A DNA stretch of 64,000 bases from Candidatus Moraniibacteriota bacterium (GTDB lineage Bacteria; Patescibacteriota; Minisyncoccia; Moranbacterales; DUUL01): contig JBFHFF010000007.1 of NCBI GenBank assembly GCA_041583775.1, forward strand, positions 3,382 to 67,381. The letters run 5' to 3'. The notes beneath the pieces were generated by a model. That model did no database searches and was not told where the DNA came from. It saw only the letters and a program-made list of their open reading frames with translations. Shown piece by piece: positions 11,376 to 64,000 of this stretch. The translations under genes and the position numbers were made by a program. The first letter of the stretch is position 1, and each line of letters begins with the position of its first letter.

Positions 11376-11664
11376 GTTGTTTGGTTGTATTTAGTGTTTG
11401 ACTTGAGGTACTTTCCCTTTTTGAAGAGGGACGCAGGGGTTTTTTGTTTTTAGTGTGACTGATTTAATTTATAATTTTCAATTAGTTAATAAATAAAAAA
11501 CTAATTTTCAAAATTAGAAATTCAAAATTTGAGAAAACTCAAACACCAAACCGCTGGCACAGTCTGGATTCCTGCTGATGTTTACCCCACGAATGTTGGA
11601 GTAGGAATGGCAAAGGAAAAAGATTGAGAAATAAAATTTCATAAATAAATATAAAGCCTAAGAT

Positions 11665-55930: not shown

Positions 55931-56004
55931 GGGGGCGTAGCTCAGCTGGTTAGAGCGATTGCCTGTCACGCAATAGGTCGCCGGTTCGAGTCCGGTCGTC
56001 CCCG
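55931..56004 (+). tRNA. tRNA-Asp (anticodon GUC)
   Basis: Hand-folded: acceptor GGGGGCG/CGTCCCC (one G-U), anticodon stem ATTGC/GCAAT, loop CTGTCAC, T-loop TTCGAGT. Confidence 0.85.
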
Positions 56005-57528
56005 CATACAGAAAACAGCACTCTTTGGAGATGCTTTTTTTGTTTTAGTTATGCCAAAAAAAGAAGGTTCGAAGGTTCGATTTATGGTGCTAAATCCTTG
56101 CATGTCTTCGTGAAGCCAATTGAAGGGTTCGGAGAGTACAAAACTAGTGATTTTTTGATTCTCTATGGTGACATTCGAGGATAGAATAGAGATGATCTCT
56201 TTTTTAATCTTTGGGGTTCCATTTTCGAAAATATCACGAGCAGATTTAACAAATTCTGCTATGAGCTCAATCTTTCCAACAATGTCCTTTTTGTGTGTTT
56301 TTACGTTTTGTAATTTCTCTTCGATTTCCGCTTCTTCACTTCGAAGCTCTGAAAGCCTGCGATTGTAGATTTCAGTTGGGATATAATTATCAATAAACTT
56401 TTCAACCAAGGAGTCTTGCTTTTGATTATTCTGTTTTAAGATTTCCGCAAGCTTTGTTTCTGATTCTTTTCTGTATTTCTGTTGTATAAGCCACTTTTCC
56501 TTTGTTGCAGAAACAATCAAATCCAAAACTTCTGCATCAAAATTGATATTTTGCAAAACGTCTCCAAAGGATAAAATCAATTCTTTCTCCCTTAGATATT
56601 TTTGGGAACAATTCTTTGCTCCTCGTGATTTTGTGCAATGATAATAAACATGACCTTTTTGTTTTTCCGCTGTAATTTTTAATCCACATTCTCCGCAAGT
56701 CATCAGCCCTCTGAAGACAAAGTTTTTTGATTCTTTTACGCTATGAAGATATTTGAAAGGGAAGAGTAGTTTTTGAACTTTCTCGAATTTACTTTTTGTA
56801 ATAATAGGCAAATGACTGCCTTTGTGAATTTGTTCTTTCCAACGGAATAGACCGCAATAAATCGGATTGTTTAGCATACCTTGAATCACTGTTTTTCCAA
56901 TCCTTTTATTTTTATTTGAGCGGAGTCCGTCGTTGTATAATTCATCAGCCAATTCTCTTATTGAAAATTTCTTTGAGCTATACAACTCAAAGGCTTTTTT
57001 GATATAAAAGCTCTTACTTTTATCAAGCTCTAATTTCTTGGTTTTTAGATTTCTGATGTATCCGATGGGAGCACAGCCAGGGTATTCGCCCCGGCGAATC
57101 TTTTCAGCCAAACCTCGTTTTACATTCTTGCTTAAATCTCGAATGTATTGATTCGCCATTCCAAACTCTATGCTTGCAATAACAACATTATCCTCGGGAT
57201 TATAATCCCGTTCAAAAGTTTTAATTCTGCCAATGATTTCTTTTTGAAGTAGCCACTTGATCAATCCTTCATCAACTGGGTTACGAGCCAGCCGATCAAT
57301 TTTCCAACACAAGACACCAACCTTTTTATTTTGCTTGATAAATTCAATCATCTCATTAAACACTGGCCTCCCAGGTTCTTTAGCTGATTTTGACTCTTGG
57401 AAAAGCTTGACCACATTTAACTTTTCCCGCTTAGCAATTTCTTTCATCTCAATGATTTGAGACTGGATTGAAAGAGCTTGGCGGTCTTCACTTTCTGTTG
57501 ATTTTCTCACATAGATTACATAGTCCAT
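55966..57528 (-). CDS. large serine recombinase/integrase; C-terminal about 12 aa are antisense read-through of the tRNA-Asp 3' end, so the true stop is uncertain
   Basis: N-terminal resolvase domain YVIYVRKSTESEDRQ (catalytic Ser), recombinase domain, Zn-ribbon CGECG...YYHC, coiled-coil. Confidence 0.85.
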   Translation of the reverse strand: MDYVIYVRKSTESEDRQALSIQSQIIEMKEIAKREKLNVVKLFQESKSAKEPGRPVFNEMIEFIKQNKKVGVLCWKIDRLARNPVDEGLIKWLLQKEIIGRIKTFERDYNPEDNVVIASIEFGMANQYIRDLSKNVKRGLAEKIRRGEYPGCAPIGYIRNLKTKKLELDKSKSFYIKKAFELYSSKKFSIRELADELYNDGLRSNKNKRIGKTVIQGMLNNPIYCGLFRWKEQIHKGSHLPIITKSKFEKVQKLLFPFKYLHSVKESKNFVFRGLMTCGECGLKITAEKQKGHVYYHCTKSRGAKNCSQKYLREKELILSFGDVLQNINFDAEVLDLIVSATKEKWLIQQKYRKESETKLAEILKQNNQKQDSLVEKFIDNYIPTEIYNRRLSELRSEEAEIEEKLQNVKTHKKDIVGKIELIAEFVKSARDIFENGTPKIKKEIISILSSNVTIENQKITSFVLSEPFNWLHEDMQGFSTINRTFEPSFFGITKTKKASPKSAVFCMRGRPDSNRRPIA

Positions 57529-57534
57529 TTTGTT

Positions 57535-57660
57535 TTATTTCTTATGTTTGAGATATTCAAAAAACTCATGAAAAAAAATTAAGATGACCAAACCAAAGAG
57601 CATTATAAGAAGATGAGGTTCGGCTGGGGTAGCATCGCTATAATATTCAAAATAGTCCAT
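57535..57660 (-). CDS. 41-aa hydrophobic small ORF directly upstream of the recombinase, speculative
   Basis: MDYFEYYSDATPAEPHLLIMLFGLVILIFFHEFFEYLKHKK. Confidence 0.2.
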   Translation of the reverse strand: MDYFEYYSDATPAEPHLLIMLFGLVILIFFHEFFEYLKHKK

Positions 57661-57849
57661 TTAGGCATCTTATTTTTTTAATAGCAAGGTTTTTGGATAA
57701 CAAAAGGACGACCCTGCTTGGACACAATCTCCAGTAAGAAAATTGTAGCAAAGATCGTCCTTACGATCTCCTACTGGTTTATAGATTGTGTCCATCTCAA
57801 CTTTAACATATTTTTTGTAATTTTTAAAGGAATTTAACCCACTCCACTT

Positions 57850-58730
57850 CGCTACAACAAATTGCTCGTCTTTGAATTTTTAAATTCATAAAAATTCACT
57901 TCCAACGCAACTTTGTTTCCGCTTCGTTCCGTTCGTACATTGCTTGTTTCAGGCTGTTCAAAATGGTAAGCGTCCGGAGGGCACGCTATCCTCGAGCACT
58001 CCTCGAGACTTTGTTTTTCGTTCCTGTGCCACTCCGAAAAACAAGACTTCTCCGAGATGCTCTGCGTCGCTTTGGCATTGTTAGAAATTAACAATGCGCA
58101 TTGATTGTCACTGCATAAGCGCCAGCCTTCGGCATCCCCACCCGCCAGTATTTTATTGTTTGCCTGCTTGTTAAGGTTTCAGGTAGATTAGGGCAAAAGA
58201 CGTAAAGGGATTCTCTCCATTCCACTCAACTCACAAAATCAAAATTCAGAAAAATCCAAAATGGATGAAAAATGAAAAAGTTTTTTCGCTGTGCTTCAAA
58301 ACACTTTCATTTTTCCACAAAGGTCTTTTTTTTGTTTGGATTTTTTTCTGAATTTCGCTTTTGTTCGTTCAGTTCCATTCCGTTCACCCTCGCACAACAG
58401 AAATTTTGCGACATTCCAATTTTTCCTTCCTTCGCTTTCTGGCTTTTTTCTCGTGGGGACCCCCGCCCCTCTCCAAAAAATCTGAAATCGAAGAGGAAAA
58501 ATGGAACATCGCAAGAATTTGTGTTGTGCGACATCTTTTGCGTGCGTTGATTATGCGTTGTCCCCCCAAACCTGCTAGCCAAGGGCAACAAGCTCCGCGT
58601 CTGTAAACAATTTCCCGTTTGATGTGGCATTGCTTCCTTGGAACTGCCAGCTACCACAAACGGACGGCGGAAAACCTTATCCCTTGGAAAGCGCGCTGAA
58701 TAATTGTAATCGAAATTATTCAGCGTATGC
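57850..58730. other. GC-rich non-coding block; candidate large structured RNA or decayed foreign DNA
   Basis: Roughly 50% GC by eye versus about one-third in flanks; only short mutually overlapping ORFs in all six frames; perfect palindromes CAATGCGCATTG (58092-58103) and CGCTGAATAATT-N8-AATTATTCAGCG (58694-58725). Confidence 0.35.
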
Positions 58731-58884
58731 TTCGCTTAATCAACTTATATTTCTGAAAAGAACTGAAGAATAATATTACCCGATCGAATTCTGAAGCTAG
58801 GGTAGCATGGAAGCTGTTTCGAAGTTTGTTGGTTTCGACTGTTCCGCAATTTTAGAATTCTAAAAAGTGTTCTTTGAAAAAACA

Positions 58885-58940
58885 CTACCTTGTTTATACT
58901 TACTTATATATATACTTATACTTAAGTATAAGTAAGGTAG
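58885..58940 (-). terminator. long hairpin (20-bp perfect palindrome ACTTATACTTAAGTATAAGT flanked by CTACCTT/AAGGTAG) downstream of the minus-strand gene ending at 58960
   Basis: Palindrome 58914-58933; followed on the minus strand by TGTTTTTTC. Confidence 0.45.
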
Positions 58941-58959
58941 TTTAGAATCGATTTCTTAC

Positions 58960-59379
58960 TTACACTTTCTTTTTGCTTCTTTTTCTTTGTGATTTCATTA
59001 CCATCTCATGATTGAAATAGTTGTTCATTGCAGGGCAGTTAAGAAAATCAATAGTTCTGCAAAAAGTTTCTTCACCTTTTTTGCAATTAGATTTTAAACA
59101 GTCCCATTTAGAATCATCCCTTGTTAGCATTGGACATGTTTTCTTGTCCAATATGTGATCAAGAATTTTTTTGATGTCTACATCAATGCATTTTTCAATT
59201 AACTCTTCGCTGATTTCTTCTAGAGGTATCCCTTTGAGAATCCGGGCAGCTATTTTTTCTGCTGCAAGATCCTTAACATCTTCTTTTTCGCAAGCTTCTT
59301 TTTTTCGATTTTCTACAAATAGTTGCTTGTCTCTCTCTGATTTTTCCATTATTTCTTTTGCTGTCATTTTTTTTCTCAT
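58960..59379 (-). CDS. hypothetical protein with Cys-rich C-terminus (element cargo)
   Basis: KKTCPMLTRDDSKWDCLKSNCKKGEETFCRTIDFLNCP; N-terminus overlaps the upstream ORF. Confidence 0.45.
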   Translation of the reverse strand: MRKKMTAKEIMEKSERDKQLFVENRKKEACEKEDVKDLAAEKIAARILKGIPLEEISEELIEKCIDVDIKKILDHILDKKTCPMLTRDDSKWDCLKSNCKKGEETFCRTIDFLNCPAMNNYFNHEMVMKSQRKRSKKKV

Positions 59380-59647
59380 TTTTTTTATTTCTAATTATTA
59401 AATTATCTATATTTTTTTCAGCTGTCCTGATGACTTCGATAAGCCTTTCAAAACGCGCTGTGGCTTTTATAGCTCGATGTGGAGCAGTGCGCAGGTATTC
59501 TTTGGATAAAGATATTAAATCCTTAAAATATCCTTCATTTTGCCACGCTATGAGCCCCGTGCGCTTCTTAACCTTCCTTTCCAAGATAAAGTTGTTGTGG
59601 ATTATCTTAATCCTGACTTCTTTGTCGATTGGAATAATTTTTTCCAT
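59273..59647 (-). CDS. hypothetical protein (element cargo); 3' part may be a frame-overlap artefact
   Basis: MEKIIPIDKEVRIKIIHNNFILERKVKKRTGLIAWQNEGYF...; Lys/Arg-rich tail in the overlap zone. Confidence 0.35.
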   Translation of the reverse strand: MEKIIPIDKEVRIKIIHNNFILERKVKKRTGLIAWQNEGYFKDLISLSKEYLRTAPHRAIKATARFERLIEVIRTAEKNIDNLIIRNKKNEKKNDSKRNNGKIRERQATICRKSKKRSLRKRRC

Positions 59648-59888
59648 TGGCTTTATTTTTAATTTTTAAGAGATTCCTAGATGAATTAAGAATCTTGACG
59701 GTTAGCATTCCCACATTTGCTAATTGATCCAATGCTAATTCAGCTTGTTCAGCGGAAATTCTCCCCCCAGTTCTTTTGTCAATTATTTTCTGACATTTAA
59801 TGATTAAATTTTGGGAGTAGCGATTTTTCAAGCCATTGGATAAATAATTAACTATCCCTATATAAAAAAATCCTCTCCGATGAGTCAA
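59607..59888 (-). CDS. hypothetical protein (element cargo)
   Basis: 93-aa ORF; overlaps the next ORF by 41 nt. Confidence 0.35.
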   Translation of the reverse strand: MTHRRGFFYIGIVNYLSNGLKNRYSQNLIIKCQKIIDKRTGGRISAEQAELALDQLANVGMLTVKILNSSRNLLKIKNKANGKNYSNRQRSQD

Positions 59889-59984
59889 TGGAGAGGATTT
59901 GAGAGATTTTGATTTTGATTTTTTCCCTTAGATTACATAAAATAGAGGTCTGATTTCTCTATTTCTTGAAAAGTTGTTAGAAAT

Positions 59985-60929
59985 TCAGCTTAATCGAATA
60001 GTATTTGTTTCTTTATCGATTATGATTTCGAATGGTTTAATCTTATTTCCTTTTTGTAATGTTTTTTTAGCGTTTTCAAGTGCTTTTAATTTCTCATCTT
60101 GGTATGATTTAGAATCATAGTGCTTCCCATGTCGTATCGCTTCATAAGCATCATCAATCGAAATATTTTCATCAACTCCTTTTGTAGTTAGAAATTTTAA
60201 AAGTAGGTAATGCCTGGAATTAGCATTGCCAATTTTTTTTCTTTGGGAACTATTCTTTATTTGAAAAAAGCCAATATTGCCACTCAAAAAACATTTGGGA
60301 GATCTTTTTCTCTTAGTTTTTTCTTTTAATCCAGTTTCTTCTAAAAACTTATTTTTCACTTCTAGCGCTATTCTGTAAAAATTATCATTCTTGGGGTTGT
60401 TTAAATTATAAATAACTTTAATTTCAAGATATTTTTGTTTCTCTAAAATCAAAAGACTCTCAAATAATCTATAACCATTTTCAATTTCGTTATCATTTAA
60501 AGAAAGAGTTGTGCTTATTTTTCCTGCTAGCTTCTGTTCTATTTTGGCAATAAAATATCTTTTTTGTTCATTGAACTGATAATAATCCTCATCAATTGGT
60601 ATTAATTTTCCATCAGTAAAGCTTTTTAAATGTTTTTCTATCTCTTCCCAAATAACTTCAATTGATTTTTTTGTTATTTCAATTTCTGGATAATTATTTT
60701 TTATTAATTTTACTTTCAAACCAGTATCTCGCTCGAGGTTTAGAAGAAGATTGAGGAGCTTTTCAATTCCTAGTTTCTTGAATACAAGCCTTTTTAATTG
60801 ATCAGGTTCAATTATGCCTGGAGTTTTTTCTGGATAATCAATTAATTTCAAAAGCAAGAAGATGAAATCATTTGAAAATAAGCGATTTTGGAAAAGTGGC
60901 GTATTAGATTTTTTTGTTTTTTTATTCAC
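59985..60929 (-). CDS. hypothetical 314-aa protein, divergent from the downstream two-gene operon
   Basis: Clean ORF with AT-rich codon usage like the host; no recognisable motif. Confidence 0.55.
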   Translation of the reverse strand: MNKKTKKSNTPLFQNRLFSNDFIFLLLKLIDYPEKTPGIIEPDQLKRLVFKKLGIEKLLNLLLNLERDTGLKVKLIKNNYPEIEITKKSIEVIWEEIEKHLKSFTDGKLIPIDEDYYQFNEQKRYFIAKIEQKLAGKISTTLSLNDNEIENGYRLFESLLILEKQKYLEIKVIYNLNNPKNDNFYRIALEVKNKFLEETGLKEKTKRKRSPKCFLSGNIGFFQIKNSSQRKKIGNANSRHYLLLKFLTTKGVDENISIDDAYEAIRHGKHYDSKSYQDEKLKALENAKKTLQKGNKIKPFEIIIDKETNTIRLS

Positions 60930-60992: not shown

Positions 60993-61943
60993 ATGGGACA
61001 AAAAATTTCATCTGTAATGAAATCAAGACGAGGAATTTCATATCAAGACAAGTACGTGTTACTTGTTTTTCTTGAAGGTTTAATAGAGGATTTAAATTGT
61101 GAGTCAGATATTTGTTTGTTGGAAGCTAATACGGAATTTTCTTATGGAAGAAACCTTTCCCTTGACATTAGAATGTTATTTTCTGAAAAAGAAGTTATAT
61201 ATGAAGTCAAGACAGGAAAAGCATACAAGGACGATAAAAAGGAAATAGGGAAGTCTCTCGATAGTTTATATGAATATGCGCAAGGAAGATTAGATTTAGG
61301 TGAACCAATCGAGATTAGACTTGTTATTACTCCAGAATTTCGTGAAAAGATCATGTCAGTTTGGTCTCAATTATTGCATATTAATGAGGCTCATAGCGTG
61401 ACCAAAAAGAATTTTTATGGCAAAACAGTTGCTAGTTCCATAAAAGACTTAATAGAAAAACTTGATTTAAAGAAGCTCACCAAGAAAAATTTTGAAAGTT
61501 TTGTTAAAAAAATGAAAATTGAAGTTGGTCCAAAAGATGAATTGCGTGATGGTGGCTCTGAAATTGATGATAGGATACGAGGCAGGATAAGAATGTTATT
61601 GAAAAAATGTCGTTGTGAAAATAATGAAGTTGAAAGTCCTGTTGATTCTATTCAGCTTGAATTAATTGATGTGGTTCGCTTGAGTTCAGAGGGAAGAGTT
61701 ACGGATTTTAAGAAATCTATGATTGATAAACTAATTCAGTGTTTTGCAAGAAAAAAAATACTCGAGAACGCAAGCTATAAACAAGAATTTATCTTTTCTA
61801 ATGAAATAAGCGGATATGAAAAAGACATAAAGTCGCTTTTAACAAAAGAATCTGAGCCTGGTGAAGTCTCGGCGACTAATAGTATGGAAGGTAAACCTCT
61901 TGGAGAAAATAACCAGAATCTTAATGATATAATTCAAATCTAG
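60993..61943 (+). CDS. hypothetical protein with N-terminal PD-(D/E)xK-like (restriction-endonuclease-fold) signature
   Basis: YVLLVFLEGLIEDLNCESDICLLEANTEF...EVIYEVKTGKAY gives D...E-x-K spacing typical of Mrr-like nucleases; the rest has no recognisable domain. Confidence 0.45.
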   Translation: MGQKISSVMKSRRGISYQDKYVLLVFLEGLIEDLNCESDICLLEANTEFSYGRNLSLDIRMLFSEKEVIYEVKTGKAYKDDKKEIGKSLDSLYEYAQGRLDLGEPIEIRLVITPEFREKIMSVWSQLLHINEAHSVTKKNFYGKTVASSIKDLIEKLDLKKLTKKNFESFVKKMKIEVGPKDELRDGGSEIDDRIRGRIRMLLKKCRCENNEVESPVDSIQLELIDVVRLSSEGRVTDFKKSMIDKLIQCFARKKILENASYKQEFIFSNEISGYEKDIKSLLTKESEPGEVSATNSMEGKPLGENNQNLNDIIQI

Positions 61944-61944
61944 T

Positions 61945-64000
61945 ATGAAAACAGATCTATTAAAGAGAATAAATAACGTCATTAGTAAGTCTTCTTATAA
62001 AAAAAATAAGAAGGAAATTTTAAAATGGTTGAAAGATCAGAAATTGGCAGCATATTTAATAAACAAGCTTCAAAAAGAAAAATTAAATGATCTGAAATCG
62101 CTCGATTTTATTCTTGAAGAGGAAATTAAGAAAGAGAATATCTTTCCAATATTTCATATTCTGCAGGAAAATATCAGTGAGAAAAATTGTCAGTTTATCC
62201 TTGATTTTCTTTTTGATAAATTTCCAAGCGCAAAGGAAGAAAAATCACTACGAATAGATGATTTTATTGGTGGAACAGTTAATATTTTGGATATTATTAT
62301 CAAGCAATATCCGGAAAAAATAGAAAGTGTGTATCTGTTGATCAAGTTGATTTTAAGGGTTCATCAAAAGCATTTTAGAGAACTAAGGACACCTCGAAGT
62401 CACGATAAACAAATCATTGCTGATTTGTTACAGAAAATATACTTTGAATATAGAAAGCAAAAAAACATTAAAAGGATTGATGAAATAATCAATCTAATTG
62501 ACTTGGGGTTTGATTTGGTAAGTGATTATAGTGATATGTCTATGTATACTCCCAGTCATATTTTTGAAGTCCTTGAGGATTATATAAGTCTTGATTTTAA
62601 GGCGAACTTTGAAAAGATTTTTGAAATTATCTTAGTTCAATTTAAAAGCAAAGGCAGTTGGTTTGATGGTTGGGAAGGTTTTGGAGGAGGTATCTCGCAA
62701 TTTGGAATAAAATATCATATTAGCGATAGACATTTTGTTGGAAAGGTATTATCTCCTGCCTTGGAAAAGTTTTATTCTGAATCAAAAAATAAACAGGAAA
62801 CCTGGAAGTATATAAGAGAGTGTTATGTGTCAAGAAAGTCAGAAGAAGTCTCAAATAGAAAACCTGACTTTTTGACTCGTTCTACGATAGGTATTGTTTT
62901 GGATCGATATAAAAACTGTAGAGGCAAAAACAAAGAAGAGGCGTTTGAAATTTTGAGAGATTTTATGAAAATGGGGAAAGGAATTCCAAGTAAAACGGAT
63001 CTTATTTTTCAGAAGTTAAAAGAGACTGACTTTAATCTTGATAAAAAATGGAAATTTATAGAAATTTCTTTGAGCTTAGAATGGAATAAAGACAAGCTTC
63101 CTGCGAACATTTTTGTTGAACAGCTCGTTGCTGATTTTGGAAAAGAGAACTATAGACCAGCTATTGAACTTCAAAATAAATGGCTCGAAACAAGAGAGAA
63201 GAGAAAAAAGAAAGTGGGATTTATGGATGATTATACTGTGGAAGCGATTAAGTCTCTTTTGCAGGGAGAAAAAACAAGAAAAGAGGGTCTGAAATTTTTC
63301 GAGTCATATGTTTCAAAGGATATTTTCAGGAATAATTTAGAGCGTTTTGACGTTTTTGATGTTGCTCAAATTTTGGGTGGAATTTTGGAATCTAACTTTG
63401 ATTTTGGTCTTAAAATTTTAAACGAGATTTCTTCCAGAAAAAAAATGACAGAAAATGAACAGGTCTTGGTTTGTAATAGCATAAACAAGATTGACAACAA
63501 AGAGATTCTGCTAAAAATTTACAATAACTTTTTACTTCCTTTTCTTGAAAAGTTAGATAACAATATAGTTAGAATAGAAAGAAGAATTGATAATTCTCAT
63601 GTTAGGGGAGCCCTTGTTGACTTTGGTGATTTACTTGCAAAAGCAGGATATTTTAAAGAAGCTCTGTTTATTGCAGAAATCTTTATTGATGACAAAGATC
63701 CGATTATTGAAAACGAAGAAGATGATCCAAGGGGAGAGCACAATCTACATAAAAGAGCACAAAAAGGTGATGATTTGAATTCAATAACAAGCGTTCGTGG
63801 CAAAGTTTGTTGGCTTTTGCATGAATTTCCAGTTTTGGGTGGTAGAAAATATATTCCTAAAGCTGTGTCTTTAGTTAAAAAGTTATCGAAAGACAATAAT
63901 TATTATGTGAGAAAGCAGGCAACACTCCCTTTAGCAGAATTGGTTCGAGTGAGGAATGCAGTTTTACCAGAAGATAAAACAAAATGGTTTTTGAATAGAG
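61945..64000 (+). CDS. large (>680 aa, runs off the window) alpha-helical repeat-like hypothetical protein, co-oriented with 60993..61943
   Basis: Hand translation from ATG 61945 stays open to the window end; start overlaps the upstream TAG (TAGTATG); no Walker A/P-loop seen. Confidence 0.5.
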   Translation, partial: MKTDLLKRINNVISKSSYKKNKKEILKWLKDQKLAAYLINKLQKEKLNDLKSLDFILEEEIKKENIFPIFHILQENISEKNCQFILDFLFDKFPSAKEEKSLRIDDFIGGTVNILDIIIKQYPEKIESVYLLIKLILRVHQKHFRELRTPRSHDKQIIADLLQKIYFEYRKQKNIKRIDEIINLIDLGFDLVSDYSDMSMYTPSHIFEVLEDYISLDFKANFEKIFEIILVQFKSKGSWFDGWEGFGGGISQFGIKYHISDRHFVGKVLSPALEKFYSESKNKQETWKYIRECYVSRKSEEVSNRKPDFLTRSTIGIVLDRYKNCRGKNKEEAFEILRDFMKMGKGIPSKTDLIFQKLKETDFNLDKKWKFIEISLSLEWNKDKLPANIFVEQLVADFGKENYRPAIELQNKWLETREKRKKKVGFMDDYTVEAIKSLLQGEKTRKEGLKFFESYVSKDIFRNNLERFDVFDVAQILGGILESNFDFGLKILNEISSRKKMTENEQVLVCNSINKIDNKEILLKIYNNFLLPFLEKLDNNIVRIERRIDNSHVRGALVDFGDLLAKAGYFKEALFIAEIFIDDKDPIIENEEDDPRGEHNLHKRAQKGDDLNSITSVRGKVCWLLHEFPVLGGRKYIPKAVSLVKKLSKDNNYYVRKQATLPLAELVRVRNAVLPEDKTKWFLNR

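Follow-up and report, generated by a model that had tools for sequence, protein, structure and literature searches.

A hairpin-rich non-coding block with a covarying three-way junction in serine-recombinase islands of Patescibacteria: a probable new structured RNA family

What is a GC-rich block without an evident gene doing in a small mobile island of a genome-reduced bacterium? The question is raised by a 64,000-nucleotide stretch of Candidatus Moraniibacteriota DNA (contig JBFHFF010000007.1; hereafter the window), in which positions 57850–58730 had been proposed, from the letters alone, to hold a large structured RNA. Here, the block is described together with its island, its relatives and its conserved core, before the nature of the folded molecule and its possible roles are discussed.

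The block and its island

In 300-nt windows, the G+C content of 57850–58750 amounts to 0.42–0.47, compared to 0.29–0.34 on both sides. The difference in composition from either flank that was originally described is borne out (42–47% G+C vs. ~30%), as is the absence of a coherent reading frame: the longest ORF in six frames spans ≤116 aa, the ORFs are short and overlap on both strands, and a Pfam search with 12 of them returned no matches. On the plus strand, the whole block folds with an MFE of −280.5 kcal/mol (z −9.8 vs. shuffles), on the minus strand with −304.6 kcal/mol (z −9.1), and no shuffled sequence reached the folding energy of the block on either strand. Helices in the block are long and regular, reaching ~26 uninterrupted pairs, and few unpaired nucleotides are conserved. 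It should be noted that helices of this kind would invite cleavage by RNase III. The block revealed neither pseudoknots nor tetraloop motifs, GNRA and UNCG together accounting for one of 31 predicted tetraloops. A promoter/terminator scan of the block gave nothing above shuffles, 57500–59100 contains no family of tandem or direct repeats above chance level, and blastn revealed no similarity to phage or plasmid records.

The three palindromes named in the original prediction are all present, i.e. the CGCTGAATAATT / AATTATTCAGCG arms (58694–58705 / 58714–58725, 100% complementary), the CAATGCGCATTG palindrome (58093–58104), and two copies of CCTCGAG (57990–57996 and 58002–58008). Longer hairpins, which had gone unmentioned, occupy 58224–58373 and 58390–58531. 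The CAATGCGCATTG and CCTCGAG motifs lie outside the conserved part because CAATGCGCATTG, the second CCTCGAG and the end of the first fall within ~57992–58117, a segment absent from the close relative L137, and because CAATGCGCATTG is degraded in L086. The repeated motifs were confirmed in part. Internal direct repeats exist but are of marginal quality (78% identity over 18 nt), and cttcgctttc occurs in one exact copy (58430–58439) whereas the supposed second is its inverted partner with one mismatch (58484–58493); the two segments form the arms of hairpin H1 (see below).

The block sits in an island of ~11.5 kb inserted in tRNA-Asp and takes up ~10% of its length; the proposed context, a mobile element beside a tRNA, is correct. 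On one side it is flanked by the gene for a small Cys-rich protein, on the other by a large serine recombinase gene with its promoter and leader. The recombinase (55966–57528, minus strand; Pfam Resolvase, Recombinase and Zn_ribbon_recom) overlaps with its 3′ end the tRNA-Asp (55931–56005), which is the attachment site. Its NCBIfam matches, XisF and CcrA/B/C, are all sub-threshold and far under the curated cut-offs, and an exact-protein lookup gave no match. In the related locus L089, a 13-nt direct repeat, GGGACGACCGGAC, delimits an 11.5-kb island.

About 13 related islands were found, all from MAGs or metagenomes of Patescibacteria (CPR), and the homologous blocks that were sought lie in the same position. 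Each island carries a hairpin-rich, mostly GC-enriched non-coding block of 0.9–1.6 kb in this place (L001, L002, L003, L010, L084, L086, L087, L090, L092, L095, L096, L136 and L137), located between small-protein genes and the recombinase wherever the contig holds both flanks. Islands with the shared backbone carry variable cargo in the form of restriction-modification and other defence-type genes. L086, L136 and L137 make up the lineage of the window. Lineages differ by large indels in the hairpin tips, and conservation tracks helices rather than reading frames.

Between block and recombinase, a separate conserved element, the promoter and leader of the peptide/recombinase transcript (57695–57811, minus strand), shows the strongest sequence conservation of the region. 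It comprises a predicted extended −10-like promoter (57811–57800) and a predicted pseudoknotted 5′ leader (57795–57695). The leader helix GGAC[A/U/G]CAA / UUG[U/A/C]GUCC occurs with three pair types among relatives, and the helix AAAGGGCGACC / GGUCGUCCUUU shows G-C to A-U changes. The leader has no match in Rfam; its pattern gave no matches in viral contigs, and in metagenomes it picked up L084, a true relative, besides four high-GC contigs that matched by chance. This pseudoknotted serine recombinase leader represents a second candidate regulatory RNA. An ORF for a hydrophobic peptide of 41 aa (57535–57660, minus strand) follows between leader and recombinase, conserved in L010, L001, L002 and L084 and present as a gene call in L089 and L137.

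Directly upstream of the block lies the gene for the small Cys-rich basic protein (58960–59379, minus strand), a marker of the island family. Alignments of the protein (A2, A8) display invariant C/C/C/NCP..N.Y positions, only 26 homologues were found among 5.8 billion proteins, and no Pfam, PDB, PHROG or NCBIfam assignment was obtained; the AF2 model has a pLDDT below 50 in the conserved domain. The ORF 59273–59647 (124 aa) weakly matches the PHROG “replication initiation protein” (phrog_154, E = 7e-5), as does its homologue in L010 (E = 1e-3). A homologue search with this ORF in the large protein database returned one protein. Other lineages have an unrelated gene of 69 aa in its place. Apart from the weak phrog_154 match, searches of neighbouring proteins against Pfam, PHROG, NCBIfam, PADLOC and PDB were uninformative. 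At the 5′ edge of the non-coding region (58876–58990, minus strand), a purine-rich box, AAGAAGCAAAAAGAAA (58990–58965), is followed by a near-perfect AT-rich palindrome (58941–58884). Both occur at the same place in L001, L003, L010, L002, L084, L087, L095, L096 and L136, and may represent an operon terminator, a promoter or a DNA site.

The three-way junction and the flanking domains

The essential part of the block is a three-way junction of ~200–350 nt (58541–58193). This conserved core (58193–58541, minus strand) is composed of a closing stem P0, in which 58541–58531 (GCAAAAGAUGU) pairs with 58203–58193 (ACGUCUUUUGC), the long hairpin H1 (58530–58391), and the hairpin H2 (58389–58207). The junction conserves ...GUGCG-A-GGG... 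and ...CCC-UUU-ACG... (CCCUUGC in most relatives), and conserved boxes are found at the base of H1. It is recovered in the single-sequence MFE fold of 58190–58545 on the minus strand, with z −8.1 for RNA and z −9.4 for DNA parameters. The sequence of the core helices varies between lineages, but pairing is always kept. In the family alignment, prepared with plain MAFFT, the RNAalifold consensus recovers P0, H1 and H2 with 39 of 63 pairs compensatory. Paired cells amount to 89.3% vs. 43–57% in slid-partner controls, and none of 500 shuffles matched the family covariation. For an alignment of 12 sequences, the corresponding values are 94.2% and 45 of 63 pairs. The covariation check thus turned out strong in the central domain. 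As regards the large structured RNA originally envisaged, a structured non-coding element is supported; however, the part that covaries family-wide is just ~350 nt long (58193–58541).

A covariance model (R1) built from eight relatives, with the window left out, matched the window at 58247–58542, exclusively on the minus strand (49.5 bits, E = 1.1e-11). It further matched L086 (E = 4e-11), L096 (E = 1.5e-32), L136 (E = 9e-17) and L137 (E = 3e-12). In the 64-kb window R1 detects a single copy, and in each related locus it detects one strong copy on the sense strand, any extra matches being antisense echoes of the same hairpin plus two weak ones (E 3e-4 and 6e-3). No matches were obtained in ~75 other serine-recombinase loci and 39 viral contigs. 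The latter had matched the H1-base pattern and were dismissed as chance, none of them having the junction by R1.

Comparison with the closest relative, L086, gives 2.0% divergence for the core and 0/151 for P0 and H1, as opposed to ~14% in the domains D1, D3 and D4, 29% in the spacer, and 26–31% at fourfold-degenerate sites. The tract of identity ends where P0 ends, and the core is more tightly conserved than the recombinase codons. These substitution patterns indicate very strong purifying selection on the core. The proposed limits of the block, 57850–58730, are in good agreement with the constrained region 58730–57919, which evolves at no more than half the neutral rate.

On the 5′ side, domain D1 (58542–58730, minus strand) comprises the perfect hairpin 58725–58694 and a larger CCAAGGG...CCCUUGG hairpin, with a G6 run (58567–58562, minus strand) immediately 5′ of the core; G-rich runs are found 5′ of the core in all lineages. 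D1 diverges from L086 by 13.8% vs. 26–31% at fourfold sites, and in L086 and L137 the stem of hairpin 58694–58725 changes only to G·U while its loop changes freely. On the 3′ side, domain D3 (58096–58192, minus strand) contains CAAGCAGG and GGGUGGGGAUGCCGAAGGCUGG. It is conserved within the window lineage (L086, L136, L137), 14.7% divergent from L086, and no alignment with other lineages was possible. Domain D4 (57919–58095, minus strand) is mostly a lineage-specific insertion with a hairpin at 57981–58070, which bears a weak likeness to the “M-hairpin”, a module found in one to two copies in another subfamily (model R2: window 57981–58070, minus strand, E = 0.02; L086, E = 9e-5). In L086, the stems of D4 are conserved and the apical loop is variable; 58117–57992 is missing in L137 and the M-hairpin-like module in L136. 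Domain D5 (57846–57927, minus strand), taken from the fold, is a terminal hairpin with a AAUUUUUAUGAAUUUAAAAAUU stem, its sequence being kept in L136 and L137 and partly deleted in L086. Outside the core, window-vs.-L086 substitutions keep 15 predicted pairs and break 29, so that pairing is not clearly preserved there and the predicted fold of the flanking domains is poorly supported. These domains differ from lineage to lineage, are under moderate constraint, and have in part come and gone as modules.

In summary, the block is non-coding, its position is conserved across related islands, and its junction covaries. It is fixed in the backbone of ~11.5 kb serine-recombinase islands in tRNA genes of Patescibacteria.

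Strand, molecule and comparison with known families

The minus-sense MFE is the lower one in 12 of 12 members. In the family alignment, G·U cells outnumber A·C cells (44 vs. 10), and the same holds for G·U-type vs. A·C-type substitutions in the window lineage (19 vs. 7); the U·G pair that closes P0 is retained in nine of 12 sequences. Window-vs.-L086 substitutions over the whole block give no clear strand choice. The strand asymmetry favours the minus strand. The lower minus-strand energy could stem from G>C skew alone, and the skew of the block has the same sign as that of the flanking minus-strand genes. Compared to composition-matched shuffles, folding z is equally strong on both strands, likewise with DNA parameters; the folding signal selects neither strand nor molecule. 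The predicted pseudoknotted leader behind the conserved −10-like box suggests that the minus strand is transcribed, and the flanking backbone genes and the recombinase are encoded on it as well. The product of the block is most likely RNA from the minus strand, RNA being favoured over folded single-stranded DNA.

At gathering thresholds, Rfam 15 (cmscan) returned only two tRNAs for the whole window and only tRNAs for 11 related loci. At E ≤ 10, no match in 57300–59300 exceeded the gathering score, most being microRNA-precursor look-alikes on long hairpins. Membership in GOLLD, ROOL, HEARO or OLE, the classes named in the original prediction, was rejected for the window and the 11 relatives, and none of these classes appeared among the E ≤ 10 matches. 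The same applies to a group I/II intron remnant: no intron model reached the gathering score and none matched the block at E ≤ 10. The block lies between complete genes, with no RT or homing endonuclease domain in the backbone, and the intron was rejected.

ROOL and GOLLD are large ornate bacterial RNAs, often encoded in prophages near tRNAs. The block resembles them as a large, non-coding, structured region with multi-helix junctions, GC-enriched in an AT-rich host, on a mobile element by a tRNA. It differs in that the host is a CPR serine-recombinase island, not a phage of Firmicutes or lake bacteria, in having no Rfam match, long regular helices, few conserved loops and no GNRA enrichment, and in that just ~350 nt are conserved family-wide. 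As far as the predicted folds go, its style of long regular hairpins with one GNRA/UNCG loop in 31 is unlike that of the named ornate RNAs. A likeness to retron msr–msd concerns the inverted-repeat closing stem around a long and a shorter hairpin, and the defence-associated mobile context. Conversely, the block is much larger, the backbone holds no RT, and the order of the hairpins is reversed, the core having its closing stem followed by the long hairpin before the short one. A retron ncRNA was rejected, as the backbone proteins lack an RVT domain and RVT_1 is found only in the cargo of L087, ~9 kb away. A recombinase guide or bridge RNA (IS110-like) was rejected as well, matches between block and tRNA/att being 8–10 nt long and no better than shuffles in seven islands.

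Possible roles and competing explanations

We consider it probable that the block functions as a structured RNA and represents a new family. Its place in the conserved backbone beside the recombinase suggests that it serves the life cycle of the island and not the cargo. How it would do so is a matter of tentative proposals. Acting in cis, the transcript might prime replication of the excised circle or control its copy number, which we regard as possible at best, and it could cooperate with small basic or zinc proteins whose genes lie directly upstream. Somewhat less likely still, the junction would be the RNA part of a minimal, protein-poor maintenance system that either primes or licenses replication of the circle or forms an RNP with the recombinase.

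RNA priming has a precedent in ColE1 RNA II. In ColE1, G-rich runs adjoin the structured part, as they adjoin the structured core of the block. In contrast to ColE1, neither an antisense regulator nor an RNase H site nor an origin could be identified in the block. The RNA-based origins of non-RepA mycobacteriophage prophages provide another precedent (PMC7157519). With ColE1 RNA II and the mycobacteriophage origin, the block has in common that it is a non-coding structured region of several hundred nt without a recognisable initiator protein and that it forms part of the backbone by which a mobile replicon is maintained, the analogy being functional only and transcription of the block predicted. 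The phrog_154 match, the palindrome and purine box at the 5′ edge, the G-runs, and the mycobacteriophage precedent (PMC7157519) are weak hints at replication or maintenance. In Pfam, PHROG and NCBIfam searches, the backbone proteins showed neither a helicase nor a primase nor a recognisable Rep, which speaks against the replication reading. The replacement of the phrog_154-like gene in other lineages and its single homologue in the large database likewise count against it. An iteron-type origin was rejected, given no tandem repeats in 57500–59100 and only the weak PHROG “replication initiation” match.

Alternatively, the folded molecule could be single-stranded DNA, i.e. a strand-specific single-strand origin or ssDNA promoter used in an ssDNA state of the island. 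Analogues are the sso of rolling-circle plasmids and ICEs, the M13 minus-strand origin, and Frpo of F. Single-strand origins of rolling-circle plasmids measure ~200–350 nt, which equals the size of the core. Like sso elements (ssoA/ssoU/ssoT, ICEBs1), the M13 minus origin and Frpo, the block offers strand-specific, long imperfect hairpins of ~200–350 nt on a mobile element. The long regular hairpins of the core with conserved boxes at the H1 base, its z of −9.4 with DNA parameters, the scarcity of RNA-typical tetraloops (GNRA/UNCG 1/31), and a structure that is orientation-specific and conserved despite little sequence conservation are all in line with this reading. Still, strand-specific folded hairpins of conserved structure, present here as in sso, do not discriminate ssDNA from RNA. 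No recognisable relaxase, HUH, Rep, conjugation or ssDNA-phage gene is found in any island, nor is an ssDNA stage evident. Association with a rolling-circle sso was rejected because HUH, Rep_trans and relaxase domains are lacking among backbone proteins (Pfam, PHROG, NCBIfam), the search covering the backbones of the window, L001, L002 and L010 together with precomputed Pfam annotation of the called genes in the Logan/ENA/JGI loci. Moreover, ~9% of the helix cells are G·U(T) and the wobble closing pair is conserved, which is more natural in RNA, and ~1 kb of flanking hairpins far exceeds what any described single-strand origin is known to require. A single-stranded DNA element therefore appears unlikely, albeit with appreciable weight.

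A self-contained, trans-acting large RNA of the GOLLD/ROOL kind, self-assembling or protein-scaffolding and with a purpose apart from replication or recombination, is a sub-case of functional RNA that differs from the preferred cis-acting transcript in mechanism. The size of 0.9–1.3 kb, the multi-domain build on a mobile element beside a tRNA, and the very strong purifying selection on the core fit such an RNA, and the conserved small basic Cys-rich protein encoded directly upstream could be its partner. We nevertheless judge it rather improbable given that homology to the GOLLD/ROOL families is lacking, few single-stranded nucleotides are conserved, no pseudoknots or tetraloop motifs were detected, and most of the block length is lineage-specific and modular.

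It is more doubtful that the block is a cis-regulatory or insulating region which, as a long structured transcript or DNA segment, blocks or tunes read-through from the upstream backbone operon into the unit of leader, peptide and recombinase. Expression of the recombinase needs tight control, and the block immediately precedes the conserved promoter and leader of the recombinase and shares their strand. However, a terminator takes tens of nucleotides rather than 1 kb with an ultra-conserved junction of 350 nt, and complementarity of the block to the leader/peptide mRNA or the tRNA/att region is at chance level. Antisense control of the leader/peptide mRNA by the block was rejected on the same grounds.

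A non-functional pile-up of palindromic mobile repeats (MITE/REP-like), or junk in a tolerant intergenic site, would explain why lineages have acquired, lost or duplicated such modules (the M-hairpin in one or two copies, 58117–57992 absent in L137) and why divergence in the flanking domains is only about half the neutral level. This is very improbable in view of the core, in which P0 encloses two hairpins, covaries across lineages and diverges by 2% vs. 26–31% at neutral sites. The R1 junction is single-copy in the 64-kb window, with no further copies elsewhere in the related loci, and MITE/REP repeats were rejected accordingly. Finally, we give hardly any credence to a decayed foreign gene or intron remnant: the overlapping ORFs of 40–116 aa and a 353-aa gene call across the region in L096 stand against the lack of Pfam matches among the 12 ORFs, the indels in hairpin tips, the helix-following conservation, and the lack of a match to intron models.

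Large structured non-coding RNAs are seldom encountered, and newly found classes have usually brought surprises about the biology behind them. Much of bacterial diversity belongs to the CPR/Patescibacteria, whose tiny genomes make 1 kb of non-coding DNA costly; our literature search yielded no description of a large structured RNA in these bacteria. If the block is RNA, it would offer a new, compact three-way-junction family (200–350 nt) for structural and functional study. Should the junction act in a protein-poor maintenance system, an 11-kb island could maintain itself in genome-reduced CPR bacteria although it encodes no helicase, primase or Rep, and the junction would stand for a new class of island-encoded functional RNA. 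Understanding the block could show how minimal CPR islands are maintained or moved.

An island in tRNA-Asp and its non-coding block

The large serine recombinase gene (55966–57528, minus strand; Resolvase, Recombinase and Zn_ribbon_recom domains) has its end inside tRNA-Asp (55931–56005, plus strand), and a separately assembled 11.5-kb contig, L089, is an identical copy of the window region. At both of its ends (positions 1–13 and 11492–11504) L089 carries GGGACGACCGGAC, a direct repeat of 13 nt from the 3′ end of the tRNA. These features place the block (57850–58730) within a tRNA-inserted island of ~11.5 kb that continues ~3.5 kb beyond the window end, in line with the mobile-element context assumed in the original prediction. 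On the minus strand, a variable first gene is followed by two or three small genes, the gene of a Cys-rich basic protein (58960–59379), ~1.2 kb of non-coding sequence, a promoter-like box with a leader, a 41-aa hydrophobic peptide and the recombinase. L089 and the contigs of two related loci, L086 and L087, stop in or beside the tRNA at the recombinase end, suggesting that the assembly branches there because integrated islands are mixed with empty or excised ones.

Relatives were collected by a recombinase scan over one genome per species, a single metagenome pattern scan, and a Cys-rich protein profile search followed by contig look-ups. This provided ~13 related islands, all from MAGs or metagenomes of Patescibacteria (Moraniibacteriota, Parcubacteria and similar). 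Every relative carries a hairpin-rich non-coding block of 0.9–1.6 kb in the same place, GC-enriched in most. The backbone is conserved, and the cargo is variable and defence-like: type III restriction-modification in L010, AlwI endonuclease and methyltransferases in L086, an MmeI-like enzyme in L088, and RT, AAA and HSP70 in L087. For the window island, PADLOC returned weak PD-Lambda-3_A (5e-7) and PycTM (2e-4) matches; its cargo, made up of unannotated genes of 316, 971, 176, 166 and 369 aa (window 60993–64000, plus strand; L089 135–6502), could represent a defence system not described so far. Comparison of the window with L086 (window 59832–60929 versus L086 5882–6980) reveals mosaic islands: identity is 87–90% from 59832 to the tRNA, the first backbone genes are unrelated (314 aa in the window, a 335-aa zinc-ribbon type in L086), the cargo differs, and the Cys-rich gene region is replaced in L137.

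G+C content is ~31% over the window, 42–47% within 57850–58750 and 29–34% on either side, which bears out the GC-rich block originally described. Its reported lack of a coherent ORF is likewise confirmed: six-frame ORFs reach at most 116 aa and overlap on both strands, and none of the 12 tested matched Pfam. Every palindrome named at that stage was found in the sequence, the internal direct repeats were seen but are weak, and the supposed repeat cttcgctttc is in fact both arms of a single hairpin. Two long hairpins (58224–58373 and 58390–58531) are much longer than those palindromes. On either strand the block is much more stably folded than dinucleotide shuffles of it. The observation is real and the lead was good. 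Conversely, the suggested membership of a named large-RNA class did not hold, as Rfam 15 at gathering thresholds returned only tRNAs in the window and 11 relatives; at E ≤ 10 over 57300–59300 nothing attained a family gathering score, and most matches were microRNA-precursor look-alikes on hairpins. Searching phage and plasmid collections with blastn gave no match, and literature searches turned up no large RNA described from mobile elements of CPR (Patescibacteria). The block represents a new family: a non-coding element, conserved and highly structured, that belongs to no named large-RNA class.

Covariation and constraint in the core

Between lineages the block sequences are mostly unalignable, and an architecture is common to all: P0 is the closing stem, the long hairpin H1 has GUYGCACAA.../...UUGUGCGA at its base, and the second hairpin H2 (GGG...CCC) is followed by CCCUUGC. 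In the window this core occupies 58541–58193 on the minus strand (P0, 58541–58531 paired with 58203–58193; H1, 58530–58391; H2, 58389–58207) and is reproduced by single-sequence MFE folding. The P0 sequence differs by lineage while its pairing is always kept (GCAAAAGAUGU / ACGUCUUUUGC in the window, GGAAAAGAGUUGAUG / CGUCAAUUCUUUUCC in L087, GAAAAAUAUUUUGAG / CUCAAAAUCUUUUUC in L092).

Covariation among homologues, the check proposed with the original prediction, is found in the core junction. The statistics and a covariance model of the core, R1, were derived from eight relatives with the window excluded, using a plain MAFFT alignment for RNAalifold. The junction was recovered with compensatory double changes in 39 of 63 pairs; 89.3% of cells were paired, versus 43–57% with partners slid by 1–3 columns, and 0 of 500 shuffles reached any of five measures. 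R1 matched the window at 58247–58542 on the minus strand only (49.5 bits, E = 1.1e-11), as well as L086 (51.9 bits, E = 4.4e-11), L096 (130.2 bits, E = 1.5e-32), L136 (62 bits, E = 9.1e-17) and L137 (49.1 bits, E = 3.2e-12), with no match in ~75 other serine-recombinase loci or 39 viral contigs. With 12 sequences, 94.2% of cells are paired and 45 of 63 pairs are compensatory, in an alignment that was fitted to R1 and is structure-biased.

Divergence by segment was compared between the window and its close relative L086. It amounts to 26–31% at fourfold-degenerate sites of the flanking genes, 29% in the spacer after the 5′ palindrome (58875–58731), and 13.8%, 14.7% and 14.2% in the block domains D1 (58730–58542), D3 (58190–58096) and D4 (58095–57919). 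The junction core (58541–58193) differs by 2.0%, and P0 and H1 alone (58541–58391) show 0 differences in 151 positions. The near-identical tract of the core has its limits at the P0 strands, which speaks for selection and against recombination that left such a tract by chance. L137, a third relative, shows 91.8% identity across 58850–58117 and lacks 58117–57992; this module is also missing from L136, in which H1 and H2 are much shorter. Thus, the long H1 and H2 tips of the window and most of D4 are lineage-specific, and the CAATGCGCATTG palindrome and second CCTCGAG copy singled out originally fall within this part. A hairpin module, the M-hairpin (covariance model R2), occurs in one or two copies in another subfamily (L002 8866–8981; L084 5184–5287 and 5369–5482; L095 2119–2232 and 2315–2429; L090 1519–1623), with weak R2 matches in L086 (E = 9e-5) and the window (E = 0.02). 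It is ~110 nt long, its internal loop is conserved in sequence (GAGRAGAC / AAGCGACGAGCAG), a CAACGAAGCA motif is repeated ahead of it, and it appears to have been gained, lost and duplicated. In summary, the block is a strongly constrained core amid modular, moderately constrained hairpins.

Strand, nature of the molecule and flanking elements

The recombinase-sense fold is the more stable in all 12 members, G·U cells outnumber A·C cells by ~44 to 10 in the family alignment, and the P0-closing U·G pair is kept in 9 of 12 sequences. Helix substitutions in the window lineage are of G·U type in 19 cases versus 7 of A·C type, and the block has a G>C skew on the minus strand, like the neighbouring minus-strand genes. 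Directly downstream lies a conserved extended −10-like box, then a leader with a predicted pseudoknot and compensatory changes; judged from sequence, this suggests that the minus strand is transcribed. Stability, wobble excess, the P0 U·G pair, skew and downstream leader favour the minus strand and RNA. Still, the MFE values against dinucleotide shuffles (plus strand, −280.5 kcal/mol, z −9.8; minus strand, −304.6 kcal/mol, z −9.1) correspond to similar z-scores for both strands, as also with DNA parameters, and the energy advantage of the minus strand could stem from nothing more than G>C skew. Tetraloops of the GNRA/UNCG type are all but missing (1 of 31), helices run long and regular, and no promoter or terminator of the block stands out in a scan, all of which weakens certainty about RNA. 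On balance the block probably acts as RNA. A strand-specific folded ssDNA, compatible with the DNA-parameter folds and less so with the wobble excess, is rather unlikely, and other explanations make up the remainder.

The downstream element (57695–57811, minus strand) has the highest sequence conservation anywhere in the island backbone. Its box, TGnTAnnAT, precedes a leader of ~100–150 nt which could form an H-type pseudoknot; one helix (GGAC[A/U/G]CAA / UUG[U/A/C]GUCC) shows three pair types and another (AAAGGGCGACC / GGUCGUCCUUU) G–C to A–U changes. It matches no Rfam family and may regulate expression of the recombinase. The 41-aa ORF between leader and recombinase (57535–57660, minus strand; MDYFEYYSDATPAEPHLLIMLFGLVILIFFHEFFEYLKHKK) is conserved among relatives and could encode a leader peptide, a small membrane protein or a type-I-toxin-like peptide; the reading frame of an overlapping 41-aa ORF (57670–57795) is not conserved. 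At the opposite, 5′ edge, a purine-rich box, AAGAAGCAAAAAGAAA (within 58876–58990), overlaps the end of the Cys-rich ORF and is followed by an AT-rich palindrome (58884–58941). Both recur at this edge in nearly all relatives, several short contigs break exactly there, and the pair is a candidate terminator, promoter or DNA site.

Possible role of the element

If the block is ssDNA, an origin or promoter in that form is an alternative role. A trans-acting RNA of the ROOL/GOLLD kind is another; the Cys-rich protein encoded upstream might bind it and may be a partner of the structured element. This protein is small and basic with an invariant Cys/Cys/Cys/N-C-P-A-x-N-x-Y motif; it has no assignment in Pfam, PDB or PHROG, and its AlphaFold model is poor within the conserved domain. 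Insulation or regulation of recombinase expression is a further alternative. Complementarity to the att/tRNA site (guide or bridge RNA) or to the leader or peptide mRNA (antisense action), iterons (iteron origin), an RT partner (retron-like RNA) and dispersed copies (MITE-like element) were each tested for, and none of these roles was supported.

We tentatively prefer a role in replication or maintenance, given that the block lies in the conserved backbone adjoining the recombinase and outside the cargo, that the islands contain no recognisable replication protein, and that G-runs just 5′ of the core accompany the AT-rich palindrome and purine box at the 5′ edge. Neighbouring proteins were uninformative in searches, the sole exception being ORF 59273–59647, with a weak PHROG match to “replication initiation protein” (E = 7e-5; L010 homologue, E = 1e-3). 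Explicitly as speculation, once the circle is excised the RNA would prime or control its replication or maintenance; the analogues are ColE1 RNA II and the RNA-based origins in mycobacteriophage prophages (PMC7157519). Just 26 members of the Cys-rich protein family occur among 5.8 billion proteins, which marks these islands as rare, and the new family of structured element is specific to this rare family of CPR serine-recombinase islands.
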